Assembly: GCA_964622645.1 (NCBI GenBank)
Contig: CAZUSV010000004.1
Coordinates: forward strand, 9,290-73,289
Direction of reading: 5' to 3'
From: an uncultured Anaerolineales bacterium
GTDB taxonomy: Bacteria > Chloroflexota > Anaerolineae > Anaerolineales > UBA11858
Length of the DNA stretch: 64,000 nt
Below, piece after piece: positions 9,828 to 53,585 of the stretch. The first letter of the stretch is position 1, and the number at the start of each line of letters is the position of its first letter. The notes below the pieces were generated by a model, which saw nothing but the letters and a program-made list of their open reading frames with translations, ran no database searches and had not been told where the DNA came from. The position numbers were made by a program, and so were the translations under genes.

Positions 9828-10244
9828 CTAATTGGCCACCTCGCTTAAGACTTCCTTGCGAATATCCCCCACAATATCATCTGTCAATGTGCCTGGACCG
9901 TAAATACCAGTCACACCGATCTCCTGCAATTTACTGATGTCTTCATTGGGGATGATACCCCCTATGAAGACCTTTACGTGATCTTGTCCGTTGGCCTGGA
10001 GCAGTTCGATCACCCGCGGTGCCAATGCCATATGTGCGCCCGACAAGATAGAGAGACCGACAACATCTACATCTTCTTGCAAGGCGGCTTCAGCGATCAT
10101 CTCCGGGGTTTGGCGCAACCCGGTATAGATGACTTCCATACCCGCATCTCGCAGGGCGCGGGCGACAACCTTGGCGCCACGGTCATGGCCGTCTAAGCCA
10201 GGTTTGGCGATCAGCACTCGAATTCTTCCTTCCGTTTCGCTCAT
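9828..10244 (-). CDS. Methylmalonyl-CoA mutase small subunit (B12-binding domain only)
   Basis: 138 aa with LDGHDRG (DxHxxG) cobalamin-binding motif. Sits immediately upstream of meaB. Confidence 0.88.
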
Positions 10245-10300
10245 CTTACCTCCAGGGGGAATTTTAGAGTGATTATACCGCGATCCCTTGCTTGATTTTT

Positions 10301-10357
10301 GGGTTCTCTAGGAATTCCCGTGGTAATGTGAGCTACCTCGGTGATTCCTAGAGAGCC
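10301..10357. repeat. Family A repeat with both arms and no core
   Basis: gggttctctaggaattcccgtggtaat..cctcggtgattcctagagagcc. Confidence 0.7.
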
Positions 10358-10370
10358 GATTTTTGTCATC

Positions 10371-10399
10371 TTGACACAGCATTACTGACGTGATAATCT
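10371..10399 (+). promoter_or_regulatory. Sigma70-like promoter of the cold-shock gene
   Basis: TTGACA, 17-nt spacer, then TGaTAATCT (extended -10). Confidence 0.55.
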
Positions 10400-10464
10400 T
10401 TCGCCGAAATGCTTAGCTGACCTGAACTCAGCGAAAAAAAGCACATAGAATGGAGTAAGTAAGA

Positions 10465-10674
10465 ATGGACGAACGTATAGTTGGAACTGTAAAATGGTTC
10501 AATGCCCGCAAGGGTTATGGCTTTATCGGCCGCGATGATGGAGATGATGTCTTTGTGCACTTTTCTGCCATCACCATGGAAGGCTACCGCCGCTTGGACG
10601 AAGGCCAGGATGTTGAATTCACTATCGAAGAAGGCCCTAAAGGTGTGCAAGCCGCTAAGGTAATCCCTGTCTAA
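10465..10674 (+). CDS. Cold-shock protein (CspA family)
   Basis: KGYGFI (RNP1) and VFVHFS (RNP2) motifs. 69 aa. Confidence 0.95.
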
Positions 10675-10695
10675 TATGGTTTGCTTTATAAAACT

Positions 10696-10727
10696 CACAG
10701 AGCCGCCATGTGGCGGCTCTGTGGTTT
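10696..10727 (+). terminator. Terminator after csp
   Basis: 12-bp stem cacagagccgcc/ggcggctctgtg with loop atgt, then gttt. Confidence 0.7.
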
Positions 10728-42185: not shown

Positions 42186-42223
42186 ACATATAGATGTTTA
42201 TTAGTCAACAAAGGAAGGAAGCA

Positions 42224-43225
42224 ATGAAAGCCATAGTACGCACGAAATACGGATCAGCAGATGTTCTCCAACTTAAGGAAGTAGAAAAACCTGCACCCAA
42301 GGAAAATGAAGTGCTGGTAAAAATACTTGCTGCCGCTGTTAATCCCTTAGATAAATACTTCATGAGAGGCACCCCGCTCTTCATCCGTTTTATGACTGGG
42401 CTGCTGAAACCAAAACACAAGACACTGGGTGCAGATTTCGCCGGGCAAGTTGAAGCGATTGGCAGTAATATCAAACAGTTTCAAGTTGGTGATGACGTGT
42501 ACGGGGATATGTCCAGTGGTAGCTTCGCTGAGTTTGCGTGCGTGACTGAAGTCAAATTAGCACATAAACCGGCCAATATGTCGTTCGAGGAAGCCGCGGC
42601 TGTTCCAGTGGCAGGGCTCACTGCTGTGCAAATCCTGCGCAACCAAATGCAGATCAAGCCGGGGCAGAAAATATTGATCAATGGTGCCTCGGGTGGTGTG
42701 GGCACATACGCAGTACAGATAGCCAAGCACTACGGAACTGAAGTCACCGGCGTATGCAGCACGCGCAATATTGACATGGTGCGCTCGATTGGTGCGGACC
42801 ATGTCATTGATTACACCGGCGAAGATTTCACCAAAACTAGCCAGGTCTACGATCTGATCTTGGACAATGTTGGTAATCGATCCCTTTCAGAAGTCAAGCG
42901 TATATTGGCTCCCAATGGAACGTACTTATTAAACGCATTTGCTCCCGCCTTGATGTTACAATTAGGTCTCCAATCTGGCAAATCAAAGATCGGTGGTCAG
43001 ACTCTGCGCAATTCGGATGTTGCCAAAATAAGCCAAAGCGACCTGGAATTCCTGAAAGAGCTTATCGAAGCCGGCGATGTTGTATCCGTTATCGACAAAG
43101 TTTACCCCTTAAGCGAAACCCCTAAAGCCATCCGGCATCTTGAAACAGGACACGCCCGGGGGAAAGTAGTTATAGAAGTTGAACATTCGAAAGGGGGAAA
43201 CGATCAAAACATATTGCTGACGTAG
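42224..43225 (+). CDS. NAD(P)H-dependent MDR oxidoreductase (quinone reductase-like), paralogue 1
   Basis: MKAIV..; [26 protein letters not shown] Rossmann motif. Confidence 0.88.
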   Translation: MKAIVRTKYGSADVLQLKEVEKPAPKENEVLVKILAAAVNPLDKYFMRGTPLFIRFMTGLLKPKHKTLGADFAGQVEAIGSNIKQFQVGDDVYGDMSSGSFAEFACVTEVKLAHKPANMSFEEAAAVPVAGLTAVQILRNQMQIKPGQKILINGASGGVGTYAVQIAKHYGTEVTGVCSTRNIDMVRSIGADHVIDYTGEDFTKTSQVYDLILDNVGNRSLSEVKRILAPNGTYLLNAFAPALMLQLGLQSGKSKIGGQTLRNSDVAKISQSDLEFLKELIEAGDVVSVIDKVYPLSETPKAIRHLETGHARGKVVIEVEHSKGGNDQNILLT

Positions 43226-43313
43226 CGCAGGGTGGCATCCTGCGTTACAGCATTTTTTGTATCCCGTTACTCAATATATAAGTCGATAAACAACCACTGG
43301 AGAAAATTTAGTG

Positions 43314-44288
43314 ATGAAAGCAATAATTTATACCAAATTCGGACCCCCCGATGTTCTTCATCTAGAAGATGTTGAGAAACCTGTTCCCAAGGATAACGAA
43401 GTCCTGATAAAAATCCATGCTACAACCGTCGTAAAAGAAGATCCAGACTGGAGACTATCCCCGGGTTTCAACGGGTTTCTGAAACCCAGAAATCCGATAC
43501 TTGGACAAGAGCTGGCTGGTCAGGTTGAAGCCGTAGGGGTAGACGTAACCCGGTTCAGACCAGGCGACGAAGTTTTTGGCATAGGTATGTTTGGCGCATA
43601 TGCTGAATACAAATGCATGCCCGATGACGGGGCGCTGGCCATAAAACCAGCCAATATGAGTTATGATGAGGCGGCTAGCGTTCCTAATGGGGCGCTAACC
43701 GCACTGCCTTTCCTTAGAGATAAGGGCGATATCCAGAGTGGACAAACTGTATTGATCTACGGTGCTTCTGGATCGGTTGGTACAGCCGCGGTGCAGTTGG
43801 CCAAATACTTTGGGGCTGAAGTGACAGGGGTATGCAGCACCACCAATCTAGAAATGGTGAAGTCTCTGGGAGCCGATCAGGTGATTGATTACACTCAAGA
43901 GGATTTTACCGAAAATGGTGAAACCTATGACATCATTTATGACACAGTAGGTAAACGTTCATATTCGGAGTGCAAAGGTTCATTGACGAAAGAAGGTACC
44001 TACCTTACTACAGTCCCTTCGCCGGCAATTATGCTGGGAGCGCTATGGCCTGCAAAGCCCGGCAGAAAAAATGCCAAGTTTATGGCCGCAGGATTGAGAC
44101 CGGCGAGTGAGAAGATCAAAGACCTCCTCTTTCTCACGGAGTTGATCGAAGCTGGGGAGATCAAAGCTGTGATAGACAGGCGCTATGCGTTGGAAGAGAT
44201 TGCTGAAGCCCACCGTTATGTGGAAAAAGGGCACAAAAAGGGGAATGTGGTCATTATCGTGGAACAAAATTCCAAGCCTGACAAGTGA
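43314..44288 (+). CDS. NAD(P)H-dependent MDR oxidoreductase, paralogue 2
   Basis: [26 protein letters not shown]. Collinear with paralogues 1 and 3. Confidence 0.88.
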
Positions 44289-44297
44289 GAAGAAACC

Positions 44298-45233
44298 ATG
44301 AAAGCAATTGTATTCGAACAATACGGCCCGCCTGACGTTCTTCAGCTCAAAGAGGTCAATAAACCTGCTCCCAAGGGGAATGAAATTTTGGTAAAGATTT
44401 ATGCGACCACGGTAACCGCAGCGGATTGGCGTATGCGCAAGCCAGATCCTGTTGCTGCGAGGCTTTTCAATGGGCTGTTTAGGCCCAAGAAAATTACCAT
44501 CTTAGGGTTTGAACTGGCAGGGGAAGTTGAAGCAGTAGGAGCAGATGTCAAAAGGTTTGAGATCGGCGACCAGGTCTTTGGAAATGCAGGTTTGGGTTTT
44601 GGTGCCTATGCCGAGTATATATGTCTGCCCGAAGAAGGGGATGCCAAGCAAGGATTGTTGGCAATAAAACCGGACGATATACCTTATAAGCAAGCTGCTG
44701 CAGTTTCTTTTGGAGGATTAGCTGCATTGAATATCCTTAGAAAAGGAAATATTCAGAGCGGACAGAAGGTTCTTATCAATGGAGCCTCCGGAAGTGCAGG
44801 AACCTATGCAGTACAGCTAGCCAAGCACTTTGGCACAGAAGTTACAGGGGTATGCAGTGGTGCAAATTTCGATCTTGTGAAATCACTGGGAGCAGATCAG
44901 GTTATTGATTACACCAAAGAGGATTTTACTGAAAGAATTGAGCATTACGATATAATCTTTGACGCCGTTGGTAAAATGATTTCGGGGATCTCGAAATCAA
45001 AATGCAAGCAAGCACTTCGTCCGGGCGGAACCTATTTGAGCGTAGAAATGTCACGCAAGGATCGTCCAGAAGATTTATCCTTTCTCGCCGAGTTGATTGT
45101 GGCGGGGAAGATTAAGCCAGTGATCGATAGGCACTATCCATGGGATCAAATTGCCGAGGCTCACCACTATGTTGAGAAATTGCGCAAAAAGGGAAACGTG
45201 GTCATAAACGTGGAGCATAACGACAAAGCTTGA
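44298..45233 (+). CDS. NAD(P)H-dependent MDR oxidoreductase, paralogue 3
   Basis: [26 protein letters not shown]. Confidence 0.88.
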
Positions 45234-45945: not shown

Positions 45946-46058
45946 CTTGACAATGTCGACTTTCTAGACGAGAAGCCCGAAATATGGGGTTACAGGGGTG
46001 CTCCGCACCCCTGTAACCCCATATTTTCGGAAGTTCTCGCGCAGTTGACATTGTCGAA
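45946..46058. repeat. Family B repeat, full copy in inverted orientation
   Basis: cttgacaatgtcgac..gagaagcccgaaatatggggttacaggggtgctccgcacccctgtaaccccatattttcggaagttctcgcg..gacattgtcgaa. Confidence 0.8.
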
Positions 46059-46084
46059 ATAGGAACCACAAAAGGAGAAGCCTC

Positions 46085-46948
46085 ATGACCACCGACGCAA
46101 AAACCAAAATCACATCATTGGGAACAATCCGTACATTCCTCAGAGAGGGTACCTGATCGGAAACCATTTTGAGCGTCGTTGACGGCTCATTCGGTCATCC
46201 AATGAAACTTGAAGAGAAGGCTTCTTTGCCCTTAGCGGGTGGCATCGCCAATATGGGTTATCAGTGCGGCATGCTTTGGGGGGCCGCACTGGCCGCAGGT
46301 GCACAGGCTTATCAACTTTTTGGACCAGGTCCAAAAGCTGAAACCGCAGCGATCATTGCCACCCAGAGGTTGGTGGAATCTTTCCGTTCTCATTCCAAGA
46401 ATGAAATCAATTGCCTTGAAATTACAGATTTGAATATGCAGGGAAAAACGGATGGGCGCACGATCCTGAAATTCTTCTTGAAGGGCGGCCCCATCGGCTG
46501 CTTCCGCATGGCTGCGAGATACGCACCCGATGTTTTCGATGGTATCAATGCTGCTTTTGCCGAAGAGCAATTCAACACACCTGCACCTCCCATAAGCTGC
46601 GCGGCCATGTTTGCGCAGAAGATGGGTGCCTCTGAGATGCATACGGTCATGGCGGCGGGGTTTGCGGGTGGCATCGGCTTGAGTGGGGGAGGCTGTGGGG
46701 TATTGGGTGCTGCGATCTGGCTCACGGGAGTAAAAAACCAACCCGTGCAATTAGAGGGATTCAGTTATTCAGGCACCTGGGTCAGCGATGTGATCGAAAA
46801 ATACCTGGAAGCCGCTGACTATGAATTCGAGTGCTCCGAAGTCGTCGGGCGGACATTCGAAAATGTAGAGGATCATGCAAGCTATTTGTCCAGAGGCGGC
46901 TGTTCCGAACTTATCGAGAAATTTGCTGACTCATTGGCCGATATCTAA
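46085..46948 (+). CDS. C_GCAxxG_C_C-family putative redox protein with an in-frame TGA at codon 24 (candidate selenocysteine)
   Basis: SD aaggag lies 7 nt before ATG 46085. TGA at 46154-46156 is in frame with the 259-codon ORF that the track starts at TTG 46169. GYQCGMLWGAALAAG and GGGCGVLGAAIW motifs are present. The 46169-46948 part on its own has confidence about 0.8. Confidence 0.55.
46171..46188 (+). promoter_or_regulatory. SECIS-like hairpin 14 nt downstream of the in-frame TGA
   Basis: gagcgtc-GUU-gacggctc: 7 bp with one bulged G and an apical GUU loop. Confidence 0.35.
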
Positions 46949-47154: not shown

Positions 47155-47601
47155 ATGACAAAGGAAAATTTCTTGACCGTTCGTTGGAACAATCTTCTCA
47201 CGCTGGGGTTAGGAATTCCCGCCCTGATTTATATCTTACTTGCCTTTTCCAATTCCTTTTGGTCTACAAGGGGCGGTATGATCGGACTCTCAATAATTGG
47301 TTTTCTATATTGACCAGTCATTGAAGGACATACCGCCGCGCGGTTCGCGTGGCTTCGAGAAAATTCTGATAATAACGTTCCAGTTCAACAGGGGTATTTC
47401 CACCCGCTTTCCTTGATCCGGTTTGCTTATAACGTGGTTTTCTGGGTCTTTTTGCTTCCATTTTTTACGAGTATGGAATACAGTACGGGCTTCATCGCAT
47501 TTACCGTGATCATTTTGACCAGGCTGTTGCTAAACCTTTACACCAATCATATACTCAAGCAGCCTGAGCAGTACGAAAGTTTTCCCTTCCGAATTCCGTG
47601 A
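47155..47601 (+). pseudogene. 148-codon 4-TM membrane-protein ORF interrupted by an in-frame TGA at codon 53 (nonsense mutation, read-through or recoding)
   Basis: SD gaaagga lies 7 nt before ATG 47155. TGA is at 47311-47313. The same frame stays open to 47601; the track only reports 47413-47601 from an internal TTG. Confidence 0.35.
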
Positions 47602-47622: not shown

Positions 47623-48297
47623 ATGGGTCATAAGCAAATCAGTCGCGTCACCCGCTCCAAGGATTCCGCCAGAGCCAGCTATGATCGTATGAGCAGATGG
47701 TATGACCTGATCGCTGGATCAAGCGAGTGGAAATATGTGCAGATTGGATTAAGTCTGTTGAAAGCCTCCGAAGGGGAAAAAATCTTAGAAATAGGGCATG
47801 GGACAGGAAAAAGTGTTCGTGCCATTGCGAACTCCGTGGGAGAGACAGGGCATGTCCATGGTCTGGACCTCTCAGAAGGCATGCATAGAATTGCCAGCCA
47901 TCGAATTGATCAGGCAGGGCTATCCGAAAGAGTAGAACTCAGGATTGGGGATGCAGCCAAGCTTGATTTTGAAGATCGATTCTTTGATGCCATTTTTTCA
48001 AGCTTCACCCTAGAGCTGTTCGATACCCCAGAAATCCCCATCGTACTGAGTGAATGTTGGCGAGTCCTGTACTCTGGAGGACGTATAGTAATTGTGTCGA
48101 TGGCAAAGAAGAGTCGAGAAAGTTTAGCCGTCAAGATGTATGAGTGGGCTCACGAAAAGATACCCAATTATGCCGATTGTCGCCCGATATATGTGACTGA
48201 GTCTTTAACAGAGGCTGGGTTTCAGATAATCGAGAACAAAGAAATGCAGATGTGGGGGTTGCCTGTCGATGCCGTTTTGGCAAAGAAGGTAAATTGA
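47623..48297 (+). CDS. Class I SAM-dependent methyltransferase (UbiE/COQ5-like)
   Basis: Motif I ILEIGHGTG and post-I GLDLSEGM. Confidence 0.85.
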   Translation: MGHKQISRVTRSKDSARASYDRMSRWYDLIAGSSEWKYVQIGLSLLKASEGEKILEIGHGTGKSVRAIANSVGETGHVHGLDLSEGMHRIASHRIDQAGLSERVELRIGDAAKLDFEDRFFDAIFSSFTLELFDTPEIPIVLSECWRVLYSGGRIVIVSMAKKSRESLAVKMYEWAHEKIPNYADCRPIYVTESLTEAGFQIIENKEMQMWGLPVDAVLAKKVN

Positions 48298-48765: not shown

Positions 48766-49596
48766 ATGAAACGCAATCATATTCTCATTGAGGCAGACGA
48801 ATTGCTAACAAAAATAAATAATCCAAATATACGTATATTTGATGCTACGATTATGTTCTACATTGGCCTTAGCCCAGAGGAAATCGCTAAGATGCCGACG
48901 GCCCATGAGCAATATCTGGCGGGTCATATTCCCGGCGCGGTATTTTTTGACCACCTGAAATTTTCTGACACCAGTAGCCCTTATGAGTACATGCTAGCCA
49001 CTGATGAGCAACTGGCTGACCAGATTGGCAAAATTGGCATCGCCAATGATTCGGAAGTCATTGTGTACACCACCGCCATTTTGGCCTGCGCCACACGTGC
49101 CTGGTGGCTGCTGCGCTATGCAGGTCTGGAAAATGTGCGTGTGCTAAATGGTGGTTTCGCTGCCTGGAAAAAAGTGGGAGGCGCCGTGGAACAGGAGGAG
49201 CAAAAATATGCAGCTACGCAATTTGAGGAACATTTCAAACCGGAGATGTTTGCCAGCAAGGAAGAAGTACAGGCTGCGATAGACATGGACGGTGTGTATA
49301 CCGAGAATGCCCTGACGCAGGATTGGCACGACCAGGAACATATTCCCGGTTCTAGCTGCTTACCGCTCACGGATCTGACAATTGAATGGGATGCCTTTTT
49401 ATCAGAGGATCAGTTGTCCGCCCGCTTGAACGGTGTAGGCCAGCACAAGCGCATCATCACCTATTGTGGTGGCGGGATTGCCGCGACATTGAACGCAATT
49501 GCACATTTGATGGTTGGCAATGAAAATGTGGCCGTGTATGATGGTTCTTTGTTTGAATGGAAGGGTGAAGGGCTGCCTGTGGTAAGCAAAGAATAA
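48766..49596 (+). CDS. Tandem-rhodanese sulfurtransferase (thiosulfate/3-mercaptopyruvate type)
   Basis: Two rhodanese domains. Active-site loop YCGGGIAA in the second. Confidence 0.88.
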   Translation: MKRNHILIEADELLTKINNPNIRIFDATIMFYIGLSPEEIAKMPTAHEQYLAGHIPGAVFFDHLKFSDTSSPYEYMLATDEQLADQIGKIGIANDSEVIVYTTAILACATRAWWLLRYAGLENVRVLNGGFAAWKKVGGAVEQEEQKYAATQFEEHFKPEMFASKEEVQAAIDMDGVYTENALTQDWHDQEHIPGSSCLPLTDLTIEWDAFLSEDQLSARLNGVGQHKRIITYCGGGIAATLNAIAHLMVGNENVAVYDGSLFEWKGEGLPVVSKE

Positions 49597-53370: not shown

Positions 53371-53483
53371 TTCGACAATGTCACATTCGCGAGAACTTCC
53401 GAAAATAGGGGGTGGCAGGGGTGCTGAGCACCCCTGCCACCCCCTATTTTCGGGCTTCTCGTCTGTAATTTGACATTGTCAAG
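53371..53483. repeat. Family B repeat, full copy, inside the SBP-ATPase intercistronic gap
   Basis: ttcgacaatgtcacattcgcgagaacttccgaaaatagggggtggcaggggtgctgagcacccctgccaccccctattttcgggcttctcg..tgacattgtcaag. Confidence 0.85.
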
Positions 53484-53585
53484 TTAGAAATTCATAATTC
53501 GTTAGTGCGAGAAATTTTCCTGAATTATAAAGGAATAGTGATGGATAATCCATCACTATTCCTTTTGATGAGTAAAACTCTTTAT

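Follow-up and report, generated by a model that had tools for sequence, protein, structure and literature searches.

Does the in-frame UGA at codon 24 of a gene of the C-GCAxxG-C-C family end translation, or is it read as selenocysteine (Sec)? The question is raised by the locus at positions 46085-46948 of a stretch of 64,000 nucleotides from contig CAZUSV010000004.1 of an uncultured Anaerolineales bacterium; this whole stretch is referred to as the window in what follows. An initial annotation of the DNA had put forward that the UGA takes the place of a conserved N-terminal cysteine (Cys) of the family and is followed by a hairpin resembling a selenocysteine insertion sequence (SECIS). The analysis presented here leads us to regard codon 24 as very probably a genuine Sec codon that is recoded within a single read-through gene. 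The argument is carried by a conserved alignment column in which UGA alternates with Cys codons, by in-frame coding sequence that is conserved on either side of the UGA and by a hairpin that is under selection at the RNA level, specifically in the UGA forms. The gene model comprises the following elements:

46072-46077, plus strand: Shine-Dalgarno (SD) motif AAGGAG, spaced 7 nt from ATG 46085, read directly from the sequence
46085-46948, plus strand: full coding sequence of a predicted two-domain C-GCAxxG-C-C family selenoprotein of 287 aa and cytoplasmic type, from translation, with start ATG 46085 and stop TAA 46946-46948
46154-46156, plus strand: in-frame UGA, predicted as Sec residue 24 (U24), at the first conserved Cys position of domain 1, from the homologue column and four assemblies

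From ATG 46085 the frame reads MTTDAKTKITSLGTIRTFLREGT-TGA(46154-46156)-SETILSVVDGSFG, and after the TGA the sequence runs on as SETILSVVDGSFGHPMK. Besides the TGA at codon 24, the 287 codons preceding the terminal TAA contain neither a stop nor a frameshift, and the initial annotation was thus right in describing the frame as open past the TGA. It had also noted the SD motif at ATG 46085 and the lack of one at TTG 46169, the start given in the mechanical listing of open reading frames (ORFs), and both statements hold in the sequence. Public gene calls begin at yet another codon, ATG 46202, and yield protein P0001 (248 aa, 100% identity). TGA otherwise serves as a genuine stop, as had been claimed: it is the commonest one and terminates 20 of the 46 stop-to-stop ORFs with 220 or more codons in the window, which excludes a genome-wide reassignment of this codon. 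A screen of the window for further TGA-interrupted genes returned no convincing candidate; the screen is insensitive, as it also missed the target gene itself.

The affiliation of the read-through product points directly to codon 24. With Cys put for the stop, the protein matches Pfam PF09719 (C_GCAxxG_C_C) in two stretches with E=3e-19 and 69.7 bits against a gathering cutoff of 27, and the best stretch aligns residues 24-117 with profile positions 3-89 of 118. The match therefore starts precisely at the UGA position, which falls on profile position 3. The NCBIfam model TIGR01909, whose curated product name is 'C-GCAxxG-C-C family (seleno)protein', matches from residue 23 with 32.8 bits and thus below its curated cutoff of 47.4; homologues score about 31-48 bits (31.1-47.7), and one of them, the Cys form P0065 (MFC2013096.1, 62% identical), carries the TIGR01909 product name at NCBI. 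The window protein is thus part of a two-domain branch that has diverged from the TIGR01909 model and scores at its cutoff or lower. It contains exactly eight Cys/Sec positions, all of them invariant in an alignment of 44 homologous sequences. Those other than codon 24 are located as follows:

46265-46501, plus strand: remaining Cys residues of domain 1, all in invariant columns, C61 (46265-46267, in GYQCGMLWGA), C110 (46412-46414) and C139 (46499-46501)
46598-46903, plus strand: Cys residues of domain 2, C172 (46598-46600), C204 (46694-46696, in GGGCGVLGAA), C250 (46832-46834) and C273 (46901-46903)

The GYQCGMLWGA motif to which the initial annotation had drawn attention is present and includes C61. 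The family is defined by four Cys in the order C...GC(A)xxG...C...C, and this order is found, the residue after the motif Cys being G and not A. In domain 2 the set reads C / GCGxxG / C / C, and all four positions remain Cys. Two separate PF09719 stretches together with the repetition of an invariant Cys pattern indicate a tandem two-domain version of the family. This statement is based on the profile matches and the repeated Cys pattern; a BLASTP comparison of domain 1 with domain 2 was not significant (E=71), though the motifs align. The C-terminal half of homologues is also matched by NCBIfam models.

Relatives were searched for among 185,579 species-representative genomes, where 418 were detected; the loci analyzed comprise 18 from a single-protein query, 80 of the 418 relatives from an alignment query and additional contigs for individual matches. 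The initial annotation had held that the UGA replaces the conserved Cys and had suggested looking for orthologues with TGC/TGT or TGA at this codon. Across 90 distinct homologous genes the column contains TGA in 64, TGC in 21 and TGT in 5 cases and no other codon. In the 26 Cys-form genes, exemplified by ...GTVRTFLKVGT-C-SEAL..., a sense codon stands at the column and the ORF is unbroken from the same upstream ATG. At the protein level most of the 120 best matches span only 82-90% of the read-through product, and many begin with 'MSVVD...', directly past the UGA position. Six homologues from the protein search are full-length and have Cys at the column; full-length Cys forms have 277-286 aa and are collinear from residue 1. 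The replacement of a conserved Cys by UGA is therefore borne out by 26 genomic and six protein homologues as well as by the onset of the PF09719 and TIGR01909 matches, and the features by which a bacterial selenoprotein is recognized, an in-frame UGA aligned with Cys and conserved coding sequence on both sides of it, are found together in this gene.

The conservation extends to the start proposed here. In 14 Chloroflexota-like orthologues the fraction of synonymous differences amounts to 0.52 over codons 1-23 as compared with 0.50 in the rest of the gene, that is, the peptide is kept while silent sites turn over, and codons 1-23 are therefore coding. Of the 64 Sec-form genes, 56 have an SD-like 4-mer ahead of the upstream start and 7 have one ahead of the first internal start, and the internal start differs among orthologues in codon as well as position. 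Had orthologues begun downstream of the UGA, this would have spoken against the proposal of the initial annotation; they do not. The public calls examined for the gene and its Sec-form orthologues are all shortened, by 29-52 residues, and in this way lose the probable reactive residue at the first of the eight invariant Cys/Sec positions. An exact look-up of the full-length product with X or C at codon 24 found no entry in the protein collection. The correct gene model should start at 46085 and have Sec at codon 24.

Sec forms are present in Chloroflexota (Anaerolineae, Dehalococcoidia), Zixibacteria, Marinimicrobia, Cloacimonadota and Calditrichota and furthermore in Gemmatimonadota, Acidobacteriota, Nitrospirota, Planctomycetota, Eisenbacteria, Ignavibacteria, Fermentibacteria and metagenome-assembled genomes (MAGs) of Deltaproteobacteria. 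The branch as a whole is spread over more than 12 phyla, mostly uncultured anaerobes. When the species-representative genomes were scanned for the exact pattern of UGA plus a hairpin of the type present in the window (type A, see below), 60 stretches were retrieved. The closest species-representative locus is that of the Anaerolineales MAG BS150m-G17 (L001, 81% nucleotide identity). Some Sec-form relatives lie on contigs or chromosomes of Mb size, for example CAVOYG010000026.1, CAWBFQ010000003.1 and OY760907.1. Four contigs of the same species (L019-L022), taken from the different Joint Genome Institute (JGI) metagenome samples 3300009008, 3300013117, 3300007510 and 3300013118, match the window over 3 kb with 99.97-100% identity and all have the TGA; the sole mismatch occurs in L020, at 46240.

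Immediately downstream of the UGA, the mRNA is predicted to form the following structure:

46171-46188, plus strand: apical hairpin GAGCGUC-GUU-GAC(G)GCUC of 7 bp, in which G 46184 is bulged and the loop GUU (46178-46180) starts 21 nt past the UGA
46154-46197, plus strand: extended SECIS, in which the lower helix UGAUCGGA (46154-46161) / UUCGGUCA (46190-46197) encloses the apical hairpin and sequesters the UGA

The minimum free energy (MFE) is -14.8 kcal/mol for the whole structure (48-62 nt) and -8.1 kcal/mol for 30 nt. According to published criteria, a bacterial SECIS (bSECIS) has an apical loop of 3-9 nt and an upper stem of 4-16 bp, a G in the first two loop positions that is usually followed by G or U, a spacing of 16-37 nt between UGA and loop and an MFE of -7.5 kcal/mol or lower (PMC13188914, Fig. 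2 legend). With its GUU loop, its 7 bp plus bulge, its distance of 21 nt and its -8.1 to -14.8 kcal/mol, the window hairpin agrees with all of these, and the description of a SECIS-like hairpin in the initial annotation, down to the bulged G and the GUU loop, proved accurate. It resembles the consensus bSECIS (bSECISearch model; archetype E. coli fdhF) in lying in the coding region directly 3' of the UGA, in its small apical loop opening with G and then U and in a lower helix that includes the UGA itself. On the other hand, it has no sequence similarity to the SECIS elements of E. coli.

The hairpin is specific to genes with UGA and is missing from most Cys forms. Over the 30-nt segment from +13 to +42 the Sec forms (n=64) have a mean folding energy of -7.8 kcal/mol (range -10.6 to -5.0), as opposed to -2.7 kcal/mol for the Cys forms (n=26), and in a first sample of 19 Sec and 6 Cys forms the fold energies were fully separated. 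Silent sites are constrained at the same place: in the 14 Chloroflexota-like orthologues the synonymous-difference fraction drops to 0.24 over hairpin codons 30-36 from 0.50 gene-wide, and the four lowest of 280 seven-codon sliding windows for synonymous change (0.21-0.24) all lie on the hairpin.

The element occurs in three types, each coupled to its own local peptide (SVVD in type A, [LS]RVL[ND] in type B and INVLD in type C). In type A, represented by 39 distinct sequences, 90.5% of cells are paired; shifting the 3' partner by 1-3 columns as a control lowers this value to 15-50%. At pair 30-41, 17 of these sequences have C-G, 5 have U-A and 1 has G-U, and the other 16 adopt an alternative register without bulge. 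Type B, GU[U/C]GAG-AGUU-CUC[A/G]AC, is found in Zixibacteria, Marinimicrobia, Calditrichota and others, and 99.2% of its apical helix is paired. Pair 26-37 of this helix alternates between U-A (14 sequences) and C-G (7 sequences) and is never broken, and none of 500 shuffles reaches the covariation score; the swap between U-A and C-G is coupled to a peptide change between LLRVLN and LSRVLD. Type C, GAUCAA-CGUGC-UUGAUC, occurs in Gemmatimonadota, Acidobacteriota and Zixibacteria. The loops are GUU at nt 25-27 in type A, AGUU at nt 21-24 in type B and CGUGC at nt 21-25 in type C, and a loop G-U is kept in all three, 17-21 nt from the UGA. The pairs of the lower helix are largely kept in types A and B and show almost no covariation, which makes this part of the structure less certain than the apical hairpin. 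Matched Sec and Cys orthologues together with three SECIS variants provide a handy test set for SECIS predictors.

Taken together, these features are consistent with decoding by the bacterial Sec pathway. Translation would begin at ATG 46085 behind the strong SD motif, and the ribosome would reach the UGA at codon 24, where the downstream mRNA would be folded into a bacterial SECIS with the apical 7-bp hairpin mounted on the UGA-containing lower helix. If the element acts by the established bacterial mechanism, it would recruit SelB-GTP-Sec-tRNA(Sec), and Sec would be inserted instead of termination taking place. Of the four Cys positions in domain 1 (U24, C61, C110, C139), the first would then be taken by Sec. 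It is from these comparative data that we infer actual Sec insertion at U24.

Several results weigh against this reading. Considered as a single sequence, the window fold is no better than dinucleotide shuffles (z=-0.64), and it is modestly unusual upon synonymous-codon resampling, where 2.65% of the sequences are as stable. No Rfam SECIS model matches the element: nothing was retrieved at gathering thresholds, and a permissive search gave one meaningless 12-bit hit. In three Cys forms (L044, L073 and L107) the local fold is also fairly stable, at -6.8 to -8.8 kcal/mol, and hairpin energy alone is therefore not diagnostic. The Mann-Whitney test comparing the folding energies of Sec and Cys forms gives p=2e-11, and p-values of this kind overstate the support, as the sequences are related and not independent. 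Furthermore, RNAalifold applied to 17 mixed orthologues returned the invariant lower helix alone; the apical hairpin was missed because it occurs in three different registers, and the types were therefore analyzed separately. That the hairpin goes beyond chance follows from the comparative evidence, that is Sec specificity, constraint at silent sites and pairing with covariation, and not from the single fold. As to the protein, a sequence search of the PDB found no related solved structure, and a PDB fold search with an AlphaFold2 model of P0065 gave nothing meaningful (best E=0.44, TM about 0.13).

The genes for the Sec machinery deserve separate mention. The search employed ARAGORN on the window and all 168 loci and tblastn with E. 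coli SelA, SelB and SelD probes; neither selA, selB, selD nor tRNA-Sec was found in the window and 1.06 Mb of flanking sequence, and ARAGORN detected no tRNA of any kind in the window. Because the search covered the window and the flanks of one gene across loci and not whole genomes, this result, which could be listed on the negative side, is uninformative and counts neither way. For Chloroflexi, selenoproteins as well as tRNA-Sec are documented (PMC1794560 Table 2; PMC5389517).

How do other explanations of the UGA fare against this evidence? The conventional annotation takes it as the end of an upstream ORF or leader of 23 codons and has the protein, 248-259 aa long and without the first Cys, start at TTG 46169 or ATG 46202. 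All public calls, including P0001, conform to it, most of the top 120 homologues are likewise incomplete relative to the read-through product, and full-length versions are missing from the protein collection. It does not account for 26 homologues in which a sense Cys codon makes the ORF continuous from the same upstream ATG, for an upstream stretch of 23 codons kept as a peptide across phyla with ordinary synonymous turnover, for SD motifs that accompany the upstream and not the variable internal start, or for the loss of one of eight invariant Cys positions from the shortened product. We consider it highly improbable. An error of sequencing or assembly, or a pseudogene, has next to no probability. 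Decayed copies do exist, as seen from an additional TAA in L017 (Cloacimonadota); yet the identical TGA is present in four independent metagenome assemblies, 64 distinct orthologues have TGA at the column, the frame and all eight Cys/Sec positions are intact and the sequence is under purifying selection before as well as after the UGA. The four assemblies and 64 orthologues effectively refute this explanation, and with it one of the outcomes that the initial annotation had named as fatal to its proposal.

The UGA could also be read through with insertion of an amino acid other than Sec. Cys could be inserted by means of a selC*-type tRNA(Cys)(UCA) together with a SelB paralogue that makes use of the same hairpin, or Trp or Cys by near-cognate suppression. 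A system consisting of selC* tRNA-Cys, SelB* and CysRS* is indeed known in Syntrophobacterales and Desulfobacterales, and in a genome it would look just like Sec decoding, with a UGA and a SECIS-like hairpin; it has been reported only for these two deltaproteobacterial orders (PMC7609411), whereas the nearest relatives of the window belong to the Anaerolineales and hence to the Chloroflexota, the phylum with the documented selenoproteins and tRNA-Sec mentioned above. In addition, the hairpin conforms to the standard bSECIS model. There is little chance that this explanation applies, and decoding of codon 24 as Sec is the reading that we adopt.

The initial annotation had left open whether Sec-containing members of the family are already catalogued. 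They are. A Sec-containing C-GCAxxG-C-C protein was first reported as 'Putative redox protein' from the Olavius algarvensis delta-1 symbiont, which has three Sec genes and two Cys homologues (Zhang & Gladyshev 2007, PMC1976440), and the same work noted that selenoprotein genes are usually mis-called short. C-GCAxxG-C-C is listed as a selenoprotein family in reviews of 2022 and 2026 (PMC9312934, PMC13188914), the latter of which distinguishes 'form 1' (Olavius delta-1; MGD8741185.1) and 'form 2' (WP_012158890.1). A survey that appeared in ISME in 2016 mentions neither the family nor Chloroflexota. Family, mechanism and type of annotation error are thus all well known, and the gene described here is an annotation correction and not a new concept.

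The window protein shares with the catalogued selenoproteins the PF09719 match, the C / GC(G/A)xxG / C / C pattern, the Sec/Cys pair in a putative redox protein and a SECIS-like hairpin directly 3' of the UGA. It differs from the family model, which has 118 positions in Pfam, in being a tandem two-domain protein of 287 aa, and from the family motif GCAxxG in reading GYQCGxxWG. The same Sec form as in the window is also present in MAGs of Deltaproteobacteria and in a Desulfobacteraceae MAG (P0061), the group of the first report, and it may for this reason be identical with the 'form 1' of 2007; the texts of the papers give no Sec position for either form. It is also conceivable, though rather doubtful, that the two-domain branch of about 280 aa represents a distinct 'form' that has not been explicitly catalogued, characterized by a majority of Sec members, its spread over more than a dozen phyla, three SECIS types that coevolved with the peptide and coupling to genes for zinc-dependent alcohol dehydrogenases (Zn-ADH) and a methyltransferase. 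The Sec form is widespread in uncultured anaerobes, among them Anaerolineae, Zixibacteria, Marinimicrobia and Calditrichota, and thereby increases the selenium demand inferred for these organisms.

Two further NCBIfam models are related more distantly. The similarity to NF045669 (DVU_1555 family C-GCAxxG-C-C protein) is weak, with E=1.6e-7 for the window protein and 31-46 bits against a cutoff of 103. NF045501 (HUGP/GUXX-star fusion selenoprotein) matches Cys-form homologues with E=1e-4 to 1e-5 and 22-25 bits against a cutoff of 325; in P0100 (residues 23-130) and P0103 (residues 23-123) the match covers the N-terminal domain and starts at the Cys/Sec position. These scores are far below the curated cutoffs and the window protein is therefore in neither family, while the location of the matches suggests that the NF045501 selenoprotein family contains a domain related to the one described here.

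In some cases two Sec-form paralogues were encountered in one genome or on one contig, namely L053/L055 (MAG MFD09779.bin.1.238), L113/L160 (CAVOWI010000010.1) and L018/L163 (CAWEDV010000001.1), which echoes the three Sec copies of the Olavius delta-1 symbiont. L018 is entirely devoid of the N-terminal region. In L017, from the Cloacimonadota MAG GH32, the conserved UGA and a type B hairpin are present (10055-10087), and ten codons after the UGA an extra in-frame TAA stands where L016 has GAA; decay of this copy or an error in the assembly is the probable cause.

The exchange of Sec for Cys and the invariant set of Cys residues point to U24 as a reactive residue, and it would be the catalytic or ligand residue of a thiol/selenol redox or a metal or Fe-S site. 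The AlphaFold2 model of P0065, a Cys form, consists of helices throughout and has a predicted local distance difference test (pLDDT) score of 71.7 and a predicted template modelling (pTM) score of 0.79. In the window, the gene is accompanied by the following neighbours:

42194-45233, plus strand: three tandem paralogous genes of the Zn-ADH/quinone-oxidoreductase family (ADH_N, ADH_zinc_N), directly upstream
47155-47313 and 47413-47601: two small membrane proteins, recurring in 7-8 loci
47623-48297: class-I methyltransferase, recurring in 8 loci
48766-49596, plus strand: protein of 276 aa with a rhodanese domain, its active site carrying Cys (..YCGGGIAAT..), two genes downstream

Zn-ADH/quinone-oxidoreductase-family genes adjoin the selenoprotein gene in 10 of 19 loci, including that of a Zixibacteria MAG, and such a neighbour is also found beside the Cys-form gene L025. 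This partly conserved gene context fits a redox role without defining one, and the recurring Zn-ADH-family and methyltransferase neighbours are the sole clue to a physiological substrate. Rhodanese families include Sec-containing forms (PMC13188914); the one in the window is a Cys form, and other loci do not share it as a neighbour.

At some distance from the gene, at 10286-10726 on the plus strand, the window, whose closest relatives are Anaerolineales, matches the Rfam cspA thermoregulator RF01766 over the full length of the model (84.6 bits, with a gathering score of 78). The match may reflect either a thermosensor in the 5' untranslated region or just conserved coding sequence for a cold-shock protein within the model.

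Directly upstream of the selenoprotein gene lies an intergenic element of about 110 bp built of nested palindromes (45949-46055), with perfect inner arms of 22 nt (45980-46001 / 46005-46026) and outer arms of 13 nt that contain TTGACA. A second copy at 53375-53485 is inverted and diverged (53403-53449), with the same three changes in both arms, such that the hairpin stays perfect. By chance, no such palindromes are expected. The element is present in the same-species contigs L019-L022, the orthologous loci of other MAGs lack it, and it looks like a repeat of the repetitive extragenic palindrome (REP) or miniature inverted-repeat transposable element (MITE) kind.

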